Part shown: positions 11,456-63,116 of the stretch, piece after piece
How positions within the stretch are numbered: the stretch's first letter is position 1
Layout of the letters: each line of letters opens with the position of its first letter
Assembly (NCBI RefSeq): GCF_037042905.1
Contig: NC_087251.1
Location: 40,054,001 to 40,118,000 of the forward strand
Direction of reading: 5' to 3'
Source of the DNA: Lytechinus pictus
Lineage: Eukaryota
DNA: 64,000 bases
Position numbers and translations under genes: made by a program
Notes under the pieces: model-generated
What the model saw: only the letters and a program-made list of their open reading frames with translations
Told to the model about the DNA's origin: nothing
The model's database searches: none

Positions 11456-13177
11456 AACCCCAAACAAAAATAAATATCACATCAAATTTGCTTCATAGTA
11501 TTGAAACAAAAAAGGGCAGATTACATACTATTTGATGCTATAATCAACAGCTGCCCTCACACGTGACGAAAATATAAACAGGTGCCCACAAATCATAATA
11601 GCAGAAAACATAAACATTCTACACATGCACAAACAAATTTAAATGGAATTAAATGAGCTGAAGTCTACTTTTCATAACCTTAAAAAGATAAATATAGTAT
11701 AGACTATATTTTACTCAGTCTCAGCGAAAAAGAAATATTCAGTCAAAATAATTTATTTGGGTTCAGGCTCTGACGCGGGTGGAGCTTAGTATGGAGCGAA
11801 ATTCGATTAAGTCGAGCATGCAGAGTGTAAGAAAAAGTTGCAACTGACAGGGAAAACACTCGCGAAAAAACTTTTTTATCTCTTTCCCGTCATCAAATTT
11901 CACTAATTTTTTTTTAACAGAGTAAACATGAAACATTGAGAAATCAGAAAATGAAATTTAAAATATTCATCAAACATTTGACCATTTATTAGTTTATCGA
12001 TTTTCTAAGAGATTCAATCTGCGACTTGTCTCTCTTTTTGGTGTGAGCTGTCACATATGTATTCTTCTGTAGCTCTAAAAACCAGATCTGAAACCAATCT
12101 CTTTCTGTCATGCTGGAACCTATCTGCCTAGAGTTCAGATGTGAACCTTTTTATAATGGTTGGTCAAGACTCTACAGCTGTTAGTCAGCCTTGAGCCATT
12201 GACCAAAACATTCTGTATGTCATAACTTTACTCTGAAGTCTGAACTAGGGGAGTGGACCTTTTAGAGAGAAGAATTAATGTAGTGAATAAGAAACCCATA
12301 AAATGTGTGTGCGTCAGAAGTTTAGCTGGAAGAAGAATGAGTATTATAAATACTTTCCAAAGAAAGTTGGAATTGGTAAACATTACAACAAGGTTGATTA
12401 TTTTATGGAAATGCTCCTTTGTGGTTAGCTTGTTTGGTTGTTAAACATTACTCTTGAAAATCAGCTATACATGTATATGATTGTTGATTGTTAAAGGGAA
12501 AGAATACTAATGGTAATGGCAAATAAATCCTACTGAAAACTAGTATCGTATTTCTATGCATGCCAAAAGGATGTGTGTGATATGATGCGACATTCCTCCC
12601 ATGAATTCTAGTGATTTTTTTTTTGTGACTATGCGATACCCCGCGACTTAAAATGTGTGTGCGTCAGAAGTTTAGCTGGAAGAAGAATGAGTATTATAAA
12701 TACTTTCCAAAGAAAGTTGGAATTGGTAAACATTACAATTTCCTGTTATACTTCCTGTATAAGTATTGATTAAGTATGGAATATGTGAGATATGTCTTAT
12801 AATCACATAACAGTAGAGATTGTACAAGAGGCTAAATGGTTATTTATTGAATGTGAAATTTGTTGGCTATAATTTCTTACTGTACATTTGTGTGTGAAAT
12901 GATACTTGATTTTGGATTTGCAGGAACTGCACAAGATGAATGGTTATTTATTGAGTGTGAAAAGGGGGTAATGTTGTGTTTGCGGTAATTGTCCAAGAAA
13001 CTATAATCAGTAATCCCTGTGCTCTTTTATTTGCATTGTACAAGAAATTGAAGGATTATCTGTCAAGTGACATGGGTGATCTCTATGTTCTAGTATTTGC
13101 AGTAGTTGTACAAGAAACTATAGGGTTGTTAATCGAGTGTGAAATGGATCATCTCTATTTTCTTGTTGAATTTGCAG

Positions 13178-13784: not shown

Positions 13785-15470
13785 TTGGTCTATTGTTCAC
13801 TTATGTTAAGTTTCATTTAGTCTAATGCCCAGTACCGGCTGCACGGAAACGCTGTTAGTGGTAGTCCCGGGGAGCCACTTCCATTGACGAGTGGATACCA
13901 TGCGTGGCCATGGGGTTTTGAAAAGCACCCTAAACAAGTATTTTCCATGTTTTGAAAATGCACCCTTAACAAGTATTGGCGTGTGAAACCCTACCCTTAA
14001 CAAGTATTGAAAACAAAATGGTACCCTTGACTGGTATTCCCCGAATTGACCCCTTAAACAAGTACAACGATATCTTAATTGTTATGTCACGAACGTGTTC
14101 ACAGACGTTGGCTTTACCTATACTTCGATTGGGTTTAGTACCACCTCACACACCTCGCTCAAATTGGACCCTAAACATGTAGTGTTCGGCAAATTGAGGC
14201 AACAAGTACATCCTTTATAAAGTATTTTAGTCTTTTTATACCGTCGCAAATAGGGCTGTAATTTTAGCGTGCGCAGACGGGCCGATCGTCTTGACTGTCC
14301 ATCTGGATTATCCAGTCTGATACTGGTGGTTTATTCCACGTTCCTTTTCCCCTTGCGATGACCACTGTGCAGTAACAGTGCTTAATTTTGATACTCAATC
14401 TGTGAAATTAATAGTTTACCAATATCTCAATATGTTCAGAATATACCTGACACATAAATGATTTCATTTTCAAGAATTATTATTTCTTTCCTGAATTACA
14501 AAAAGTCTAACTTTAGTAGGTCAGGAACGTGTAACATTGACTGAAACTATTTTAAAAATTACAAAATTGTCAAGGTTTGGGAGATATCGGCTAAGTTTGC
14601 CCAATGTCATCAGTAACTCAATGTAATGCTTAACAGAAAATATAGGATAGGTTTATATTTTGTATAAAATTATTCCCCAGCCGCCTCCATGAACATGAAG
14701 CCGACCCTGCCCGCCCCTGATTTGTTAAAATCAAAGTAATGGCAATGTTTACAATAATTTTGAATCATGCAACTGCGATATTACCAGGGTCTCGTGATTC
14801 AGCGAATGGGTTCTATAACCCTTGCAAAAAAGCAAAACATAGGATTTTGTAATGACCTGGCCACGCGAGAAATTTCATGATTTTAGACTTTTGGCCATGC
14901 AATTTAAAGGGATGGTCCAGGCTGAATTTGGTACCCAGAGGCAAAATGTGGGCAGGGTCATTGTTGCCATGATAATTTCATTTATTTGTCAAATTTCCGT
15001 GTGAGCTCTATATATCACAATGATGGATGATGTGGGTTCGGGGGATACATGTGCTCGGCCGCGCGACCCGACGAGCATTTCTAGTTGACCCTTTACAAAA
15101 GCTTAATAGCTGACTTTCAAGCAATTTGTAAAGTGAAGTAAAAGTGCATCAAAATGGGGTATAAAAAAAGGTTGATTATTTTATGGAAATGCTCCTTTGT
15201 GGTTAGCTTGTTTGGTTGTTAAACATTACTCTTGAAAATCAGCTATACATGTATATGATTGTTGATTGTTAAAGGGAAAGAATACTAATGGTAATGGCAA
15301 ATAAATCCTACTGAAAACTAGTATCGTATTTCTATGCATGCCAAAAGGATGTGTGTGATATGATGCGACATTCCTCCCATGAATTCTAGTGATTTTTTTT
15401 TTGTGACTATGCGATACCCCGCGACTTAAGTGATAGAGTCCTCAATGCTGACAAGCTCAGAATTAAATGA

Positions 15471-18013: not shown

Positions 18014-19144
18014 GCAGGTGATTTTTAAAACTTGTGATAATAGCTTTGCAAGTGATACCATTGGGAAGCGGAACTCTTCCAGATCTCAGAACACTATGAA
18101 TTTTTGAAAATTGAGCAAACAAGTCATTAGTTATGCCCAATTATGTTTCCGCAATTGGTCATTAATATTTGACCATAGGTCATTCTTTTGTTTTACTTTG
18201 TTGTAAAAATTATACTATACAAAACCTGACATCATATTTTCAAACTTTTGTTATTCTAATGTTTTGTGTATTGCAGTTATGAAACTTGGCAGGATGTTAT
18301 ATTGTATTTTGCTTTTATGTATTTTTTTTTTCATGGTCAGGTCAATAATAATGAATTTATGAAATAACAAATCATAATTTGTGCATATTTTTCAAAATTT
18401 TTGCCTTGTCAATTACTGCAGATAGTTTTTGTTGAATGTGCTCTCTAATGCTATTTCAAAGTATGAAAATATATTTTTTGACCACTACGTAGTTAGGGTA
18501 TTTTTTTTTTCCAAAGCTTTTTTTTCTAAGACTAGCCAAACGTGTTTAGGTTATTTTTTTTCCCCAAGCTTTTTCCCCGGGGCTTTTTCCTCCTAGTTTC
18601 TGAAAAGTGTTCAGGTTCTTCCTGATTGTGGTATTTTAACCCTAACTTCACTGGGGGTATGCAATACCCATGAATATAATTTTGTCTATATTTAAATATA
18701 TTAGCAAGAAGACAAAACTTGTTTAGGAGTCATATTCTGGCGACAACTTGTTTTGGGCCAAAATGTGTTAATGAAGCTCCCAAAAAACTTGTTTAGGGGG
18801 TTATTTTGCACACAGAGAAAAACTCGTTTAGGGGGTGTTTGGAAATAATTTGGCCACGCGTGTTAATACATTTGACTGCCCCCCCCCCACCTGGGGTTGA
18901 TGTAACCCTTACTGAATATCTCCATTTTCATTTTTTCACCCTTGGGTATCATTTTTCATGGAATCGCTGCAATGATATACCATTTAGTTGTTTTGAAATG
19001 GTTTTTAATTTTTTTTTTAATTATGTATCTTATTGATTATTCTGAGAGTAAAAGTACCAAGTGATATTCCAAATCTGTTTGTCAACTTGTTGAGTTTTGT
19101 ATTAGTTTGTATATAATGCTGATGATTCTCAATCTTATGTTTAG

Positions 19145-19265
19145 GATCTTTGGACATGAAGGTTCTGCAGCAGAGGATATTCTCTATGTTAACTGGCTTA
19201 ACATGGTCCGAGCTGGAATCCTTGGTCTAGAGTTCTATACACCAGAAACTAAAACATGGAGACAG
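19145..19265 (+). CDS. DPP3: DPP3 internal exon
   Basis: ttag|G...CAG|gtacg; IFGHEGSAAEDILYVNWLNMVRAGILGLEFYTPETKTWRQ. Confidence 0.96.
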
Positions 19266-20031
19266 GTACGTACAGGTTCTTAAAAAGCAAATGTTGCAAA
19301 TACTTTTGTTGGTTTTATGGGGGTATAAAATTTATTTTTGCTATATAATAGATTTTTTATCTTGAAATAATTGACTTGTAAACTCCATGAAGATTGGGCA
19401 GAACCTTTCTTAAATTTAAGATATTGTATTAAATATATTGCAACATGCATACCGGTATTATAAAAACTCTAGAAATATATAATTTTTGTCTCTCCTGCAT
19501 AGCAGAGCAAGACTATAGGCGCCGCTTTTCCTACGGTGGCATCGTCAACATTGAAATCTTAATCAAGGTTAAGTTTTTGAAATGTCATCATAACTTAGAA
19601 ATTAAATGGAGCTAGTTCGTGAAACTTAGACATAAGGGTAATGATGTATCACTAAAGATCCTGCCTGAGTTTCAGGTCACATGACCAATGTCAAAGGTCA
19701 CTTAGGGTCAACAAACTTTAGCCATGTTTGGCATGGGCGTCGATGCGCTTTCTATTCATTAGGGGGATGGCACTTTGTATTATTACGTATTACGGTGAAT
19801 AGAACTTTCTGCGGATCGACACCATTAACATTTAGGGTATTTGTAGAATTGTCATCATAACTTACAAATTTTATGGATTTAGTTCATGAAACTTGGAAAT
19901 AAGAGCAATCAATTATCCCTGAATATCCTGTGCATGTTTCAGGTCACATGACCAAGATCAAAGGTCATAGATGAACTTTGGCCTTGTTGGGGGTATCTAG
20001 TTTATGAAACACACATACGGGTAATCAAATA

Positions 20032-21043
20032 CTGTAGAAGCTGTTATTTTCGCGTACAGAATTTTTCGCGAATCGCGGGGGTCCCAACATTTTCGCGGGT
20101 TGTTAAATTCGCGATCGGAAGATGTAGAAAACATTTCCACAGCATTTAACAGAAGCAAAACTAGTGCTAATCACGTGCAAATCACTTCTCTTCAAGGTTT
20201 CCATGCTGATGTGTCTCTTATACATAAATATGTACCTGTAAAAACAGTTACAAACTGTGGAAAAAGGTGGTTTAAATTTCAATTTTTTTACCTTTAGATC
20301 TGAAAATTCATCATGCCACAGTTTGATCTGTAATTTATAGGGTTAAGCAATCTTTAGAATTTGTGTTTTGTTCTATTAATTTTTCAAAAAGTTGGTAAAA
20401 GTGCAAAAATGTGGAATTTTGTGAACAGAATCTTCACCTGTAAAAGCTCTGGTCATGTGACTTATGAATATTAATGAGTATGCAAATAGCTGCCAATACG
20501 TGTGTAATATAGTCAATCAGATGACAAAAATATCAAATTATTTCGTGGAAAATACATTTTAATATTACAATGAGTGTATAGATATCGATAAAATAATGTT
20601 AGAAAATACTTAAGGCTCTGATTTTGTTTGAGAAATTAAAAAAAGTGAAATTCTAGCTAACTTTTTGAATCACTAACTGTACTTTCTAAGCCTTATTTTT
20701 TGTACATATAGAGGTGCATATCTCCATTTGGGCGTTGTGGCGTGCGCCTGTAATCCAAGCTGTGGGGAAGTTACAAATTGATGCAGAGGTTCGAGGTTCG
20801 ATCCCTGGTCACGTCTTTCGGATGGTGACGTTAAAGGTCGGTCCCAGACGTAAATAATCATATCTGATTGATACACGTCTGACAAAACTCAAATACACAC
20901 ACATTTTCTCAGTCTACAGTATGTTTTCAATAGCAAAACTTTGCTGTTGGGGACATTGGCACTGACTAACAATTGTGTCAATATTTTCGCGTGTTGTTAA
21001 ATTCGCGGCCGATCGGTAATTCGCGAAATTACAGCTTATACAG
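20032..21043. mobile_element. Tc1/mariner-like MITE
   Basis: TA|CTGTAGAAGCTGTTATTTTCGCG...CGCGAAATTACAGCTTATACAG|TA. Confidence 0.75.
20730..20901 (+). mobile_element. Chimeric SINE: 7SL-like head + tRNA B-box + Deu/Nin-like core
   Basis: GGGCGTTGTGGCGTGCGCCTGTAATCCAAGCT; GGTTCGATCC; CTTTCGGATGGTGACGTTAAAGGTCGGTCCC; 3' hairpin CAGACGT...ACGTCTG; (AC)n tail; CATTT on both flanks. Confidence 0.72.
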
Positions 21044-21764
21044 TATTCTTTTGCACATGTCTTAGGTCACATGATCATGGTCAAAAGTCATTTTGGGTCA
21101 ATGAACATAGTATTTTATTATCATATGAATGTTTTTTTTTGTAAATTATTCAATAGCTGTTTTCAAAGTCAGCACTGCTGCTATATTGAATTGTGTAATG
21201 CAGAAAGAGACTGCCAGAGGCGTTCTACTTGTTATTCTTGGTACCTCTAATGAAAGTATTTTTGAAGAAAATGTTAGTGGTGTGCCCTTATTTTTGTTTC
21301 ATGTCTTGCCTGCACACCAGAGCAAGACTATACACTGTAGGTGCCGCTTTTCCGAACGCGGCAACAGGGACAGCGATGGCGTCGACATCAAATCTTAACC
21401 GAAGGTTAAGTTTTTGAAATGACAACATAACTTTGAAAGTATATGGACCTAGTTCATGAAACTTGGCCATAAGGGTAATCAAGTATTATTGAACATCCTG
21501 CTTGAGTTTCAAGTCACATGACCGAGGTAAAAGGTCATTTAGGGTCAATGAACTTTGACCAAGTTGGGGGTATTTGTTGAGTTACCATAACTTTAAATGT
21601 TTTTGGATCTGATTCATAAAACTTGGACATAAGAGTAATCAAGTATCACTCAACATCCTTTGCAAGTTTCAGGTCACATGACTAAGGTCAAAGGTCATTT
21701 AAGGTCAATGAACTTTGGCCATGTGGGGGTATTTGTTGAATAACCATCATAATTGAAAGTTTAT

Positions 21765-22062
21765 AGCGAGATGCGTTATCTTGCCAAGTCGACTTCTACA
21801 AACTTATCTGTCGACATGGCGAGAAACATTATCTCGCCATTTTAAACAATTATATGTCGACTTATAAGTCGACATGGGGAGATATATTATCTTGCCAATT
21901 TGATTTATAAAAAGTTATATGTCAACATGGCGAGATTTTCTATCTTGCCAAGTCGACTTATAAAAAGTTATATGTTAACATGGCTATATGTTAACATGGT
22001 GAGATATTTTATCTTGCCAAGTCGACTTATAAAAAGTTATATGTCAACATGGCGAGATTCCG
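21765..22062. repeat. Tandem imperfect hairpin repeats built on GTCGAC
   Basis: About five units of TATCTTGCCAAGTCGACTTATAAAAAGTTATATGTC(G/A)ACATGGCGAGA. Confidence 0.8.
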
Positions 22063-22125
22063 GATTCTCGCTGGGACTTGTAACAGCTGATTTATTCTCT
22101 CTGTTTATATGTTGTTATTGATCAG

Positions 22126-22305
22126 GCTCACATGCAAGCACGCTTTGTTATCTTGAGAGTATTAGTAGAAGCAGGACAAGGCTTAGTAACTATCACCAGG
22201 ACAACAGGGGATGATGGGAAGCCCGATGTCGTCATTCAAATTGACCGTAGTAAGATAGAGACAGTAGGAAAGGAGGCCATTGGGAATTTCCTCAGGAAAC
22301 TACAG
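22126..22305 (+). CDS. DPP3: DPP3 internal exon
   Basis: atcag|GCT...CAG|gtatg; [17 protein letters not shown]...IGNFLRKLQ. Confidence 0.97.
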
Positions 22306-22997
22306 GTATGTAGTTTTTAATGATCTTTGTTGCATCTCAAGCTTTCATTTAATTGATTTTCCTCTTTGTGGATAGAATATATTTTGTATTGGTTAACCAT
22401 GAGAATTCTTACAATCAGTTAATCACCTTCCAGTCCTTTCACTTTACATGAGAATAAAAATAAAATCTGCTTATGTAATGATAATATCAAGTGTCGGGGG
22501 AGGGGGGCTGTCAAATATATTGCTGTACACATGCATGACCAAAATAATGCGTTTAATGGGGTGATTTACTATCAATAACTGGGATACATTTCTTTAATCT
22601 ATTGCTCTTCATCCACATGAATGGCTACACCGAAGACAATAACTCACAAATTCCTTGCGCGGCACGTCCAGTCACTCATGCAAAGAGACTCCATCATCTT
22701 TTCATTTCGCGCTCACCGAGTTGGGACGTCTCGTAGATAAGTGCTCTTATTTACCATCAATATCCCATAAGTCACTTTTCAACCAAACTTGGATGGTAAA
22801 TGTACTTTGGGGACCTGCATGTTATGCTGCAGTCAGAGGTCACATGTTAAGGTCAAAGGTCATTTTCAGGTCAACGTTTATAAAGTTTATGTGCAAGACT
22901 GTCTTACGACACATAATTCAGCAACCGTAAGTCACTTTTATACCAAATTTGGATTGTAGATGTACTTAGGAGACCTGCATGTTATTGTGTTTGGAGG

Positions 22998-35714: not shown

Positions 35715-36347
35715 TCACAAAGGAGGCTGAAGTTGTTGCAAAATGCTGTCTATTTCCAGAACAGACTTGATTATATAATCTGCTTTGACATAGTCTGAGC
35801 TTGGTTGTTTCCCGTAAGGATTAATCCACACTGTAGCGAGGACCTTGGCATTAACGCCACCCTGGATATCTGTCTCCTGGCTATCACCAACCATGATGCA
35901 CTGTGAAGCTTCTACACCAAGTAGTTTACAAGATGTCTTGAAGATAGATGGATGTGGCTTTGGTTCGGGATGGTCTCCACTGATAACAATTTCATCAAAG
36001 AAATCTTCGGCCCCGATCTGATCAACTTTTTCTCGTTGAACTTTACTGTCTCCATTTGTTAAGAGAAGTAATTTATATTTCAACCGTAACTGCTTAAGAA
36101 GGGCCTTCACCTCTTCATCAAAATACAACCCCTCAAGCCGTAGTTTCTTCCAGAGTTGATAAACTCTTGAAGCCAACTCTTCGTTCTGGTTGGAATTTAG
36201 TGCAGTTTTCCACAGTCGGGTCCTCCATTCATCAATGGGAATCTTGTTTTCTGGATCTTTCTCTGCAGACTGTAACAACTTCCTGAAGTTTGAGACAATG
36301 CTTTCGGCATTACAGCTCGGAAATTCTTTCTGGATGAATCTTGTCAC
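35715..36347 (-). CDS. NANP: NANP coding exon 2; total protein 237 aa
   Basis: tgcag|GTG in phase 0; LLLLTNGD (motif II), EPKPHPSIF (III), MVGDSQETDIQGG (IV); TGA stop. Confidence 0.93.
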   Translation of the reverse strand: MTRFIQKEFPSCNAESIVSNFRKLLQSAEKDPENKIPIDEWRTRLWKTALNSNQNEELASRVYQLWKKLRLEGLYFDEEVKALLKQLRLKYKLLLLTNGDSKVQREKVDQIGAEDFFDEIVISGDHPEPKPHPSIFKTSCKLLGVEASQCIMVGDSQETDIQGGVNAKVLATVWINPYGKQPSSDYVKADYIIKSVLEIDSILQQLQPPL

Positions 36348-37256
36348 CTGCAGAGGATCAGATATGAAGTTGTAAAGTGAAGTTTAACATCTATTCACGA
36401 GCCACGAGGGTTGATTCAATTATCATGGTACAAAAGTCAACGGCAATGACGATGCAGATTTAATATTGTATTATCGTGCTTCATTTCCAGCATGAATTTA
36501 GGACCAGGCCTTTGCCTTGAAAAAACAAGGTTAAGTCCATTTTCTACAGAGCCTATACTCTGTAGTCTAGATAGGCCTAGCCTGGGTAACGTATAGTGAG
36601 TGATTGTATTACCGACCAGCCTTGACTTGTATTACCGAACACGCGCATCGTACGCGTCAGAAAATAATTTCATACGCTCAAAATTTTGCAACATCCTTCC
36701 AAAGACTCAAAGAGAACTTGAATAGAAAGATGACGAAAGATGGTCAAAAACACATTTTCAAAGTCTTATATTCTAAAAATAATAAAATATGGTCAAAATA
36801 GCTCATCAGTGATTTTGTTGTTTTCTCAACTTTTCCCATAGAAAACACACGTTCGGTAATATGATACCTTTTTCAAGTGACCAAAATATTTAACATGCGA
36901 AGAGGGGTCCGATTTGAAGCTAATATCGTAAAAAGGAAAAACGATTTCGGCAAAAATTTTACATACCGGTATTAATATTTTGTTGGTAATTGTGTATTTA
37001 TGGTGAAAGTTTGGTGAATTTTATGAGAATAGTGTGTTTGATATGATTGAATTAGAGAAACCCAGCTGCAGCAAAACCTATGCCGGCCGCTCAGCCTCGG
37101 CGCCATCGCAGGGCATCGGCTAAGTCTGCGGGCCGCCCGGGCGCCGGGTAGCCATCATGGCATGCCCATGTTGGCGGCAAGATGCCGGTCCAAAATTCCA
37201 AAAAGGGTGTAACATTAGGCCTAGAATAACCTCTTATATACACAAATGAAACTTAC

Positions 37257-59584: not shown

Positions 59585-61941
59585 GTATGGAACACCATTT
59601 TTTTTACACTTGCAGGTAATTCTTGAGTTGAAACTGTTTGTTCAGGATTTATATGGTAGGTCCTGTTCACTGATAGGGTCCACTTTTTGTCAACCTAGGT
59701 GTCAAATTTTCAACCCATTTAAACATATTTTTTGTTTTTCAATAAATCTTCATGAAAAATTACTTCTGGACCTTAATCCATCTGCTAATGTATACCTCGT
59801 ACTATACCCAATCTCCTGAACTTAAAGCAATATTTTTCACAAAAGTGGTAAGAGAATTTTTTAATGAAGGAATGGACTTGCATGTATGCCAATTCTTCTT
59901 TGAGTACTTAAAGCACATCATTTTTGCTACACAAGAAAATGAAGATCCAAATGTGAATGTTTTTTTGTGGAGATTTGCCAATTTTGCAATGCTTTTATGC
60001 CGTATTTTCAGTTAAAAATTATGAATGTGAGTTGCAAAAGTTTTGTTTATACTTTAATACAAGACCAGACGAAAAGACTATAATATGTCATTGGTAATGT
60101 ACTCTTCCCACAGTGATGACTCACAGCGAATATTAGCTCAATTCTTTTACTGTTTGTAAAAGTACAGATTTGATACTTTTATAGGCAGGACGTGACAGAT
60201 TGATTTGAACGGAAATCTAAACTAGTAAACTAGTACTTAAACAAACAGAACAAGCTTATTTGGCTGATTTTATGGTTGGACTAGAGATTAATGTTATTAA
60301 TTTTGTTTTTGTTATTTTGTTGTGTTTGTTTGATGAGGGTATTGAGGGACTATAATTTACTGAAGTATGCAAAACAAAGTAAAATGTTGCGCAAGAATCT
60401 GTTTTATCTCATTATTTGTCCAATTTTTCAGTGTTTGTGTTGCTTTATAAGGGTTTGGCTTTGCATTTGGTTTGATTTTATTTTATTTACCAACAAAACA
60501 ATACATATAAAATTACAACGTAATATAATACATGATAAAATAACATTGGATGGATCGTCCTACTCAGCTGCGCCATTACAGCACAACTGTTCTGCCGAGG
60601 GGTCCAGCAATATTAAATAAACAAGATGATGAAATGATGATGAAAATGAAATGATGAAAATCCATATTTTATTGTTCGAAATAGACATGAAATGAAATAC
60701 TCCAAAAATTTGCTCTGCCCAATTGATCGTGGGCATGGCAGTCGCTGTGCAGCGCCAGATCAACAAGGCTCTATCCCTTTATGATGAAATTCATATCACA
60801 AAATAAATTCATTAACAAATTTGTATAACATAGAAGAAACACCAGTTATAGGGAGAAAGAACAGAAGACCAACATTAAAACAAAGAATGTTTGCGAATAA
60901 TCTGGAAAATATTAGAAAATATAAAGTGAAGCATATCAAAACGTGTATAAATTTCTATTCACATTTGCTGTCATGTCCTGCCACTTCAAGGTTAGTTAAC
61001 TGCACATTTCACATTTAGTAATAAACAAAAAGTTAAAAGCACATATTTTGTTCTTTTACCAATGCAGTTAACTGCAAACATATTACAAATCACTGTGAAT
61101 TTATTGAACTATATTTGCTATAAAGGAACTCCTGATTGTGTAGCCTAATGAACTGTGCTTATAAATAATATCAAATGGATCCATTGTTGAGCACTATCAC
61201 TAACAGGCTCCAAGCAAAAATGGCAGGACGTGACAAAATTGTGAACAACGATTAAGTCCTGCACAACTTCATCAATGTCAATGATTGGGCAATGATTTTT
61301 GGTACATAAACTCTCTATGTTCTACATGTATGTAATATTTTTGCATGGTTAATGATACCATTTAGTGTCAATGTCTTCTAAAAGCCCACAGACTTGATAA
61401 CACTCAAATGTGAATGGAAAATGTCACGTCCTGCCTAAAAATCATACTTTAGAGGTTTCTGTTTATGTGAATTATATATGATATTCAAGGACATAAATGC
61501 CATTCTTGAGGTTGACAACATACATGTAAGTGCTCGCTTTGGCCACACTTAAACTATTTTTACACCCACACCCAAAGGAAACGGAGAATGAATCCAGTTT
61601 AAGCTAGTGGAGGTAGGACCTATTGGATTTAACTAACAACAATGATAGTTATAAATTCTCTAACTCATTTATTTTTGGGCATGGGGCTTATAAATGGAAA
61701 AAAAGTTAAAAGTGAACCCTAACCGTGAACAGGACAGGTAGGAACTTGATCATTTAAGGTTATGTCTTTACATGTACATTATATTTGGCCTTGTCCTCAT
61801 TGCTTCAGATCTTGTTGATGCCTGATGGAAGAGCTTGATTGGTCTACTGACTACATATTTTGTAAAAATTAAAAAAAGTTCATTATGTTTTAAGATGTGA
61901 AATTGAAACTAATGATATGAATCCACTTTGGCCTTGTATAG

Positions 61942-62033
61942 GTGGTATAGAGACTGGTTCTATCACTGAAATCTTTGGAGAGTTCAGAACTGGAAAGACT
62001 CAACTCTGTCATACTATGGCTGTTACTTGTCAG
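61942..62033 (+). CDS. RAD51: RAD51 coding exon 4 (Walker A)
   Basis: tatag|GT...CAG|gtaaa; [31 protein letters not shown], 92 nt. Confidence 0.98.
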
Positions 62034-63116
62034 GTAAAACTTGCTTTTCATTTACTAGAAAGGAGTCAATTTCATAGAAATGAGATAATAGAGAAGAGCA
62101 TCAAAATCAGTTTGGAAATGAGAAATGTTTAAAAAAAAATTCTCTTTTCACTTTCTATGGTGATCCTCAAATTGGCAATGTTGCTTCAAAGTGACTGATG
62201 TAGCAGTACACCCTTCTCTATGTTTTGTACTCTAAATTTGTTAGTTACCCTAGTATCTCTCAAGAGTCAGTAGGCGGGTCCCCAAAAAGTTAATGAGTGT
62301 GATGCAGACCAAAACACCCCTTTTCATTCGGTCATTGTTGACCATCTGGTAGAGCTACATGAGGGTCACCTAACTTCCACACAGAATTTTGAAATTTTGA
62401 CTAGAAAATTATTTATGCGACTAGAAAATTATTTATGCTAATTTTTGCAACCTTTATTCATAAATCACAAAATATGCCTTTTCTCCTTTATTTGTTGATC
62501 AATTTCAATTTTATTTGCTATATATGATAGCTCTAGGTGGGGATAAACAATTTATTTGCAGAATTTTGAAACTCATTAAATATGCTAATTTGTACATATT
62601 TTTCAAAACTCACAAAAAATGCTACTTATTTATTTGTTGACTGATTTTTATTTATTTATTTTTGTTCCATCTGAGAGCCACAGAAGTTTAACCAAGGTTC
62701 TAAACAGAATTCAGAAATTTTTTACTAGAAAAATTATTTATGCTAATTTATACAAAATTTATTCATAAATCACAAAAAATGCTTCTTATCGGTCATTTCT
62801 TCAGCAATTTCAATTCTGGTTCCTCAATTTAGGTCACCAATATAATTCATTACAGTGTCAACTTGGCTGAAATTATAAAGTGTGTTTAATTTCGTTCCAA
62901 GGTGCAGGATGAGCTCCACATCATTGAAGTGCTAGTTATCTTTCCTTTTTTAAAAAGAGTTTGTGTATAAAAATCAACCAGTAATAGTATCTGCTTAACA
63001 ACACTGATGCAAGCTGATGCAACCTGACCAAGTATAGTTAGAACTCAAAGCCAATTCAAACATTTATTTTTAATCCATCTCTGATATTAATCCATCTTTG
63101 ATATTTTGCCATTCAG

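Follow-up and report, generated by a model that had tools for sequence, protein, structure and literature searches.

SINEs headed by 7SL RNA have been described from few animals. In the available text of the sources, their hosts are given as primates, rodents, and hagfishes (PMC10886601), the hagfish element is termed the first evident SINE1 outside Euarchontoglires (PMC7245038), and a 2026 paper places 7SL-derived SINEs only in supraprimates, hagfish, and the shrew mole, all with a two-part 7SL layout (PMC13023118). As far as this text goes, the printed record is confined to mammals and hagfish, in agreement with the rarity that an earlier interpretation of the locus studied here, made from the letters without database searches (the sequence-only reading), had ascribed to such elements. 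Alu, FLAM, and B1 in Euarchontoglires, like Urop in the shrew mole, keep a 5′ and a 3′ part of 7SL around a central deletion and have a 7SL-derived B box, a poly(A) tail, and L1 as their partner; every 7SL SINE described in the accessible parts of these papers retains the 3′ Alu strand (PMC13023118, PMC7245038). The hagfish SINE1-1_EBu gained its 7SL head independently, on an older tRNA-headed SINE with a microsatellite tail and a non-L1 partner. As excerpted, its 7SL sequence, 96 nt from the 5′ part together with the 3′ strand, takes the place of the whole tRNA head, and it has an RTE-derived body and duplications of about 17 nt (PMC7245038). In tree-shrew Tu SINEs, 7SL and tRNA origins meet in one element, which is multimeric, descends from a mammalian SINE1 ancestor, and is described in the same partial texts without a Deu-like body (PMC13023118, PMC7245038).

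Head capture is also known among DeuSINEs. AmnSINE1, SINE3, and OS-SINE1 bear a foreign Pol III RNA, 5S rRNA, upstream of a partly kept tRNA head and a Deu-type body (PMC4758252, PMC3747384, as excerpted). The sequence-only reading had named a DeuSINE from amphioxus with 7SL and tRNA parts as a precedent; this was not upheld, since BflSINE1 appears in the available listing as tRNA-headed (PMC3747384) and the head capture known for DeuSINEs is that of 5S rRNA (PMC4758252). The sea-urchin SINE2-3_SP, a DeuSINE with a CR1 partner, and the Inv/alpha SINEs of echinoderms and hemichordates have a Deu/Nin-type body under a tRNA head, according to the accessible descriptions (PMC3747384, PMC5804259).

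Here we describe a 172-nt element (20730–20901, plus strand) in an intron of the dipeptidyl-peptidase-3 (DPP3) gene of the sea urchin Lytechinus pictus, within a 64,000-nt stretch of contig NC_087251.1 (the window). We consider it probable that this is one copy of a chimeric SINE in which the 5′ domain of 7SL RNA was grafted onto a tRNA-type SINE body. The extent and order of its parts agree with what had been read from the letters alone (Table 1).

Table 1. Parts of the chimeric SINE and the elements that enclose it (positions in the window).
Feature	Position	Strand	Basis and remarks
Left 5-nt flanking repeat, candidate target-site duplication	20725–20729	+	Sequence; chance 0.15–6.4%
7SL-like head (model positions 4 to ~45, the 5′ Alu domain)	20730–20771	+	Rfam Metazoa_SRP; clear up to 20761, weak after
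Linker between head and T-arm	20772–20787	+	Without significant likeness to the heads of L001–L003
tRNA-type T-arm, B box 20795–20805	20788–20807	+	Perfect B-box consensus; B boxes of L001 and L002 at the same position
Conserved body, 5′ part of Deu/Nin domain (Inv/alpha-like)	20808–20845	+	By-eye likeness to bivalve and hagfish SINEs
3′ stem-loop, candidate LINE recognition signal	20845–20881	+	z −2.99
Spacer rich in A, followed by a short (AC)n tail	20882–20901	+	Sequence
Right 5-nt flanking repeat	20902–20906	+	Sequence; first T4 run, a possible Pol III stop, from 20904
MITE-like element containing the SINE	20032–21043		Terminal inverted repeats (I5); TA on both sides (20030–20031, 21044–21045)
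Host repeat with core units of ~160–270 nt around the MITE, HINE-like according to the sequence-only reading	~19487–21240		Repeat families D1, D3, D12, D14
Two consecutive DPP3 coding exons and the intron holding all nested elements	19098–22307	+	Pfam Peptidase_M49, profile positions 362–415 and 414–476

Unlike Alu, FLAM, B1, and Urop, the urchin element has only the 5′ domain of 7SL, without the 3′ Alu strand, and it combines this with a tRNA-type B box, a Deu-like body, a hairpin, and an (AC)n tail. With SINE1-1_EBu it shares the independent 7SL head on an older tRNA-headed SINE, the microsatellite tail, and, presumably, a partner other than L1, but it has about 45 nt of 7SL, keeps the tRNA T-arm, and is flanked by a 5-nt repeat. 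Like the Tu SINEs, it joins 7SL and tRNA origins. Its plan also resembles that of the 5S-headed DeuSINEs, although the captured RNA is 7SL rather than 5S and the Deu/Nin domain is represented by no more than its initial ~38 nt. The Deu/Nin-type body is shared with SINE2-3_SP and the Inv/alpha SINEs, families known here by description, to which the body and tail may belong.

The head matches the Rfam family Metazoa_SRP at 20727–20779 (24.8 bits; E 4.8e-4 for 1.6 kb searched with 4227 families); across the whole window the same match has an E-value of 0.019 and is the best of two at E ≤ 1. The score lies below the family's gathering score of 70, as expected because the head is only a fragment of 7SL. 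From 20730 to 20761 the element is identical to the Metazoa_SRP consensus, which is that of the family and not the host 7SL gene, at 28 of 32 nt (model positions 4–34, with one inserted base), bearing out a by-eye count of about 26/32 against the human sequence. Beyond this, only 5 of 11 nt match over model positions 35–45. Model positions 1–3 are absent, and nothing was matched after about position 45, where the linker and the tRNA-type arm take over.

In the Rfam alignment, the first hairpin of the Alu domain retains six standard pairs and one consensus G-G, with one pair broken, and the second retains all three of its pairs. The junction between the hairpins and the starts of both loops are identical to the consensus; these are the places in the Alu domain where SRP9/14 binds and where the two loops make contact. 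Flank bases 20727–20729 pair with model positions 42–44 (~20768–20770), both sides deviating from the SRP consensus. Thus the closing helix forms only with bases of the flanking repeat: either this copy lacks it, or the element truly starts 3 nt to the left. Judged from this one copy, the SINE may begin at 20727 rather than 20730, overlapping the supposed duplication.

A tRNA D-arm, the competing source for the head named in the sequence-only reading, did not give the better alignment: no tRNA family matched the element at E ≤ 10 (Rfam, 1.6 kb), and ARAGORN found no tRNA gene in the 64-kb window. A mir-1268 match across the head (E 6.3) was not significant. When the linker was compared with the heads of the three related sequences described below (L001–L003), 331–1655 of 2000 shuffles scored as well; an apparent likeness to L003 was discarded after the shuffle control (331/2000 as good).

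Both Pol III box motifs of general SINE anatomy are present when judged by consensus motifs. A putative A-box-like site with two mismatches starts at 20730, the first base of the element, and lies 65 nt from a perfect B-box consensus at 20795, which occurs nowhere else on either strand of the window and confirms the T-arm and B box proposed earlier.

The body matches the row of the bivalve BivaMD-SINE1 (supplement of PMC4824008) at 30 of 38 nt in exact blocks, counted by eye, and, likewise by eye, resembles the hagfish SINE2-7B_EBu (supplement of PMC7245038). Because both rows run on with domain sequence that is absent here, only the 5′ part of Deu/Nin is present. The Deu/Nin core of the sequence-only reading therefore holds as a Deu/Nin-like piece, shortened to the 5′ ~38 nt matched by eye; a full Deu domain, reported in the accessible text as 330 nt in vertebrates with a 70–120 nt core elsewhere (PMC4824008), is lacking. 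The Nin domain's 5′ part is termed Inv/alpha, and the position and extent of our body fit this domain as it is described in the available text, that is, by description only (PMC5804259, PMC4758252).

Downstream, the 3′ hairpin has a folding energy of −13 kcal/mol, which gives z −2.99 and was equalled by 3 of 200 shuffles, and together with the (AC)n tail it stands as first described; the fold of the whole element is no better than that of shuffles (z −0.22). The tail hairpin has z −3.37 in L002 and −2.15 in L003, and is not significant in L001 (−0.36); none of the 21 pairs of the consensus fold shows a compensatory change. A LINE sharing this 3′ end was not found within the window.

Searching with an exact 20-nt pattern from the body retrieved three metagenome contigs (L001–L003) that carry the body and tail from the B-box region onward, with 83, 90, and 90 of 101 aligned bases identical to the SINE. 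Each copy sits in a different flank and ends in a short repeat, which is (AC)n in L002 and a tetranucleotide repeat in L003. Positions 20814–20849 are invariant in all four sequences, partly by selection since the search pattern lies within them. Upstream of the B box the contigs resemble neither the SINE nor 7SL, and they show no SRP-like head at E ≤ 5. In L002 the A and B boxes are 43 nt apart, which is tRNA spacing; in L003 they are separated by 69 nt, the A box being good and the B box weak. Since Rfam calls neither head a tRNA (no match at E ≤ 10; ARAGORN finds none in any of the three contigs), a tRNA origin for the L002 and L003 heads is suggested by the box motifs. The same body and tail under different heads are direct evidence of a mobile module with exchangeable heads, on which the 7SL piece is a graft, and so substantiate the chimeric origin proposed earlier. 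Conservation of the module is strong, and its bearers may be marine animals that are only distantly related. It extends over 290–486 of L001 and 325–489 of L002, beneath two further heads; L003 (150–370) has a longer head and a tail hairpin whose loop holds a 9-nt insertion that spares the stem. The pattern gave no match in viral contigs, and two matches in prokaryote genomes were dropped, being 23-nt coincidences in bacterial DNA that shared nothing more with the element.

Against published definitions the element is a mixed case. Its head is 7SL-derived, as in SINE1, when measured against the family consensus (28/32, E 4.8e-4), and it lacks the two-part 7SL layout common to Alu, B1, Urop, and SINE1-1_EBu. 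SINEBase, in the accessible part of its description, asks for 100 or more dispersed copies per genome and for an overlap of 60 nt or more with tRNA, 5S, or 7SL at an identity of 60% or higher (PMC3531059); the head, pieced together from 32–45 nt of 7SL and about 20 nt of tRNA-like sequence, falls short of the 60-nt overlap. As judged from its sequence, the element would work like an Alu-headed SINE, and its head places it with SINE1, though without the two-part layout, the full Deu domain, or the SINEBase overlap.

The SINE lies on the sense strand of the DPP3 intron, inside a MITE-like element that is itself inserted in a host repeat. When the two flanks of the MITE are joined, they align to all four neighboring core repeats with scores of 69–95 (shuffle maxima 29–34), restoring one core unit, which indicates that the MITE inserted into the host repeat. 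A search of the putatively HINE-like host repeat for subterminal inverted repeats gave a weak local score only, and a second element related to it begins near 21300. No second copy of the MITE was found in the window. The sequence-only reading had the SINE nested in the MITE, the MITE in the host repeat, and the SINE moving later than both: the nesting is seen, and the SINE likely moved later than the MITE, a judgment based on its position and on the 5-nt flanking repeat; it may have entered the MITE before or after the latter came to this site. This repeat (CATTT), taken earlier for a target-site duplication, is real, but among 20,000 random position pairs per setting it arises by chance in 0.15% of cases with exact ends and in 1.3–6.4% with 1–3 nt of slack, so that as a duplication it is only suggestive. 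Just within both MITE ends is a 29-nt direct repeat, 93% alike (20085–20113 and 20979–21007; D13). Between the host repeat and the downstream DPP3 exon, an array of 53–69-nt units that are also mutual inverted repeats runs from 21752 to 22059 and ends right before the exon (D2, I1, I2).

Neither blastn nor nhmmer found a second copy of the SINE in the window, and with a profile of the body the next best hit had an E-value of 13. Fourteen of 24 listed sequencing runs, all from one organism and 7 studies (one of which may be the source of the assembly), contain 11–13 of 15 sampled 31-mers of the element. Its presence across these studies identifies the sequence as the organism's own and makes contamination or a misassembly improbable. 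Of the 14 runs, five are small and guessed to be RNA; finding the words there seems more in keeping with a repeat than with one lone sequence in an intron and hints at many copies. Six metagenome RNA runs hold a fraction of 0.20–0.27 of the words (under 5 words) and are no evidence either way.

Several origins of the head other than a working Alu domain have to be weighed. The Alu-like character of the head would be explained by an assembly artefact or by contamination with human Alu sequence, but only its first 32–45 nt are Alu-like, they are joined to a non-mammalian body, the whole lies in a nested repeat within a sea-urchin intron, and the 14 runs from 7 studies hold its words; we regard this origin as extremely improbable. 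It is very unlikely, if less so, that the head is a drifted 5′ half of a tRNA that resembles 7SL by chance, both having an A box. The match is indeed short and its bit score far under the gathering threshold, but it is significant across 4227 families, its 28 identities extend 20 nt beyond the A box, and no tRNA matches; moreover, the A-box-like site stands at the very first base, without the acceptor strand that would precede it, and 65 nt from the B box. The single copy in the 64-kb window, and the fact that only one of the four sequences compared has a 7SL head, would suit a one-off retrocopy, produced by a single template switch from the RNA of a tRNA-type SINE to 7SL RNA and never amplified. 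Against this speak the deviation of the 3′ part of the head from the SRP consensus, the linker, which is found in none of the three relatives, and the near-identical words in the five small RNA-like runs, and we consider such an event unlikely.

More serious is the possibility that a 7SL-headed SINE family does exist but that its head serves as A-box donor only, the Alu fold and SRP9/14 playing no part; the anatomy would be the same and the mechanism another. In favor of this are the fading of the match past model position 34, the missing positions 1–3, the broken pair, and a tail that has its own hairpin and has spread with relatives under heads other than 7SL. On the other side, both hairpins and their junction are kept well past the A box, over a length near that of the 46-nt minimal domain. 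On balance we lean against it while giving it considerable weight. A family with a 7SL head, which is part of the explanation preferred here, is in our judgment rather probable; a real role of SRP9/14 for that head is plausible, yet held with less than even confidence.

Under the explanation that we prefer, a chimeric SINE family with a 7SL head, the ancestor would have been a SINE of the ordinary tRNA-headed kind, whose short body was Deu/Nin-derived (Inv/alpha-like) and was followed by a 3′ hairpin and a microsatellite tail. The 5′ part of this tRNA head may have given way to the initial ~45 nt of 7SL RNA, with a template switch during reverse transcription as the simplest route, and the exchange would have been independent of the origins of Alu/B1, Urop, and the hagfish element. 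Pol III could transcribe the product from a hybrid promoter, with the 7SL A box and the tRNA B box 65 nt apart, up to a possible stop at the first T4 run (20904). At its 5′ end the RNA would take on the two-hairpin fold of the Alu 5′ domain; it may bind SRP9/14 there and in this way reach ribosomes translating a LINE. By analogy, a stringent-type LINE (CR1/L2-like) would read the 3′ hairpin and the short repeat and insert a copy with a short duplication; SINEs of this kind in S. purpuratus are listed with CR1/L2 partners in the available part of PMC3747384.

A 46-nt 5′ Alu domain has been found to bind SRP9/14 and to support retrotransposition in HeLa cells at ~86% of full Alu activity, according to the accessible text of PMC12199147. 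The length of 7SL kept in the urchin SINE is close to this minimal domain as given there, and both hairpins are largely kept, in one copy with one pair broken and a closing helix that uses flank bases. We propose, tentatively and as something short of probable, that the element is a natural counterpart of this minimal domain. On this view a tRNA-type SINE would have taken up nothing of 7SL but the 5′ domain that binds SRP9/14, retained the B box of its tRNA, and reached ribosomes for a stringent, hairpin-reading LINE rather than L1, founding the first invertebrate family of 7SL-headed SINEs.

No echinoderm 7SL SINE was found in the literature by title and start of abstract, in a coverage that has most subscription journals and Repbase Reports outside it, and an uncurated or unpublished repeat-database entry for the SINE is possible. 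Provided that it is one of a family of many copies, this would be the first report of a 7SL-headed SINE from an invertebrate. The echinoderm case would add another independent origin, and one of different construction, having only the 5′ Alu domain and a body and tail that also occur under other heads. If the minimal-domain interpretation is true, the SRP9/14 trick is modular and not bound to poly(A) and L1, and the tRNA-headed sisters provide a built-in control. A tail shared between 7SL- and tRNA-headed forms permits a direct test of whether SRP9/14 recruitment itself gives SINEs an advantage; the relevant contrasts are copy number, selection on the fold, and retrotransposition.

Other features were seen elsewhere in the window. 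Two near-identical segments ~2.8 kb apart in DPP3 introns (12448–12663 and 15226–15441) have matching reading frames and are probably a young repeat. On the minus strand, a coding exon of more than 200 codons (35715–36383) belongs to an N-acylneuraminate-9-phosphatase; its 211-aa product (35718–36350) is 96% identical to the cluster of this enzyme from Lytechinus variegatus, the next being that of Diadema at 82%. This places the window in Lytechinus or a near relative and agrees with the probable sea urchin of the sequence-only reading. A Rad51-family exon lies at 61866–62132 on the plus strand.
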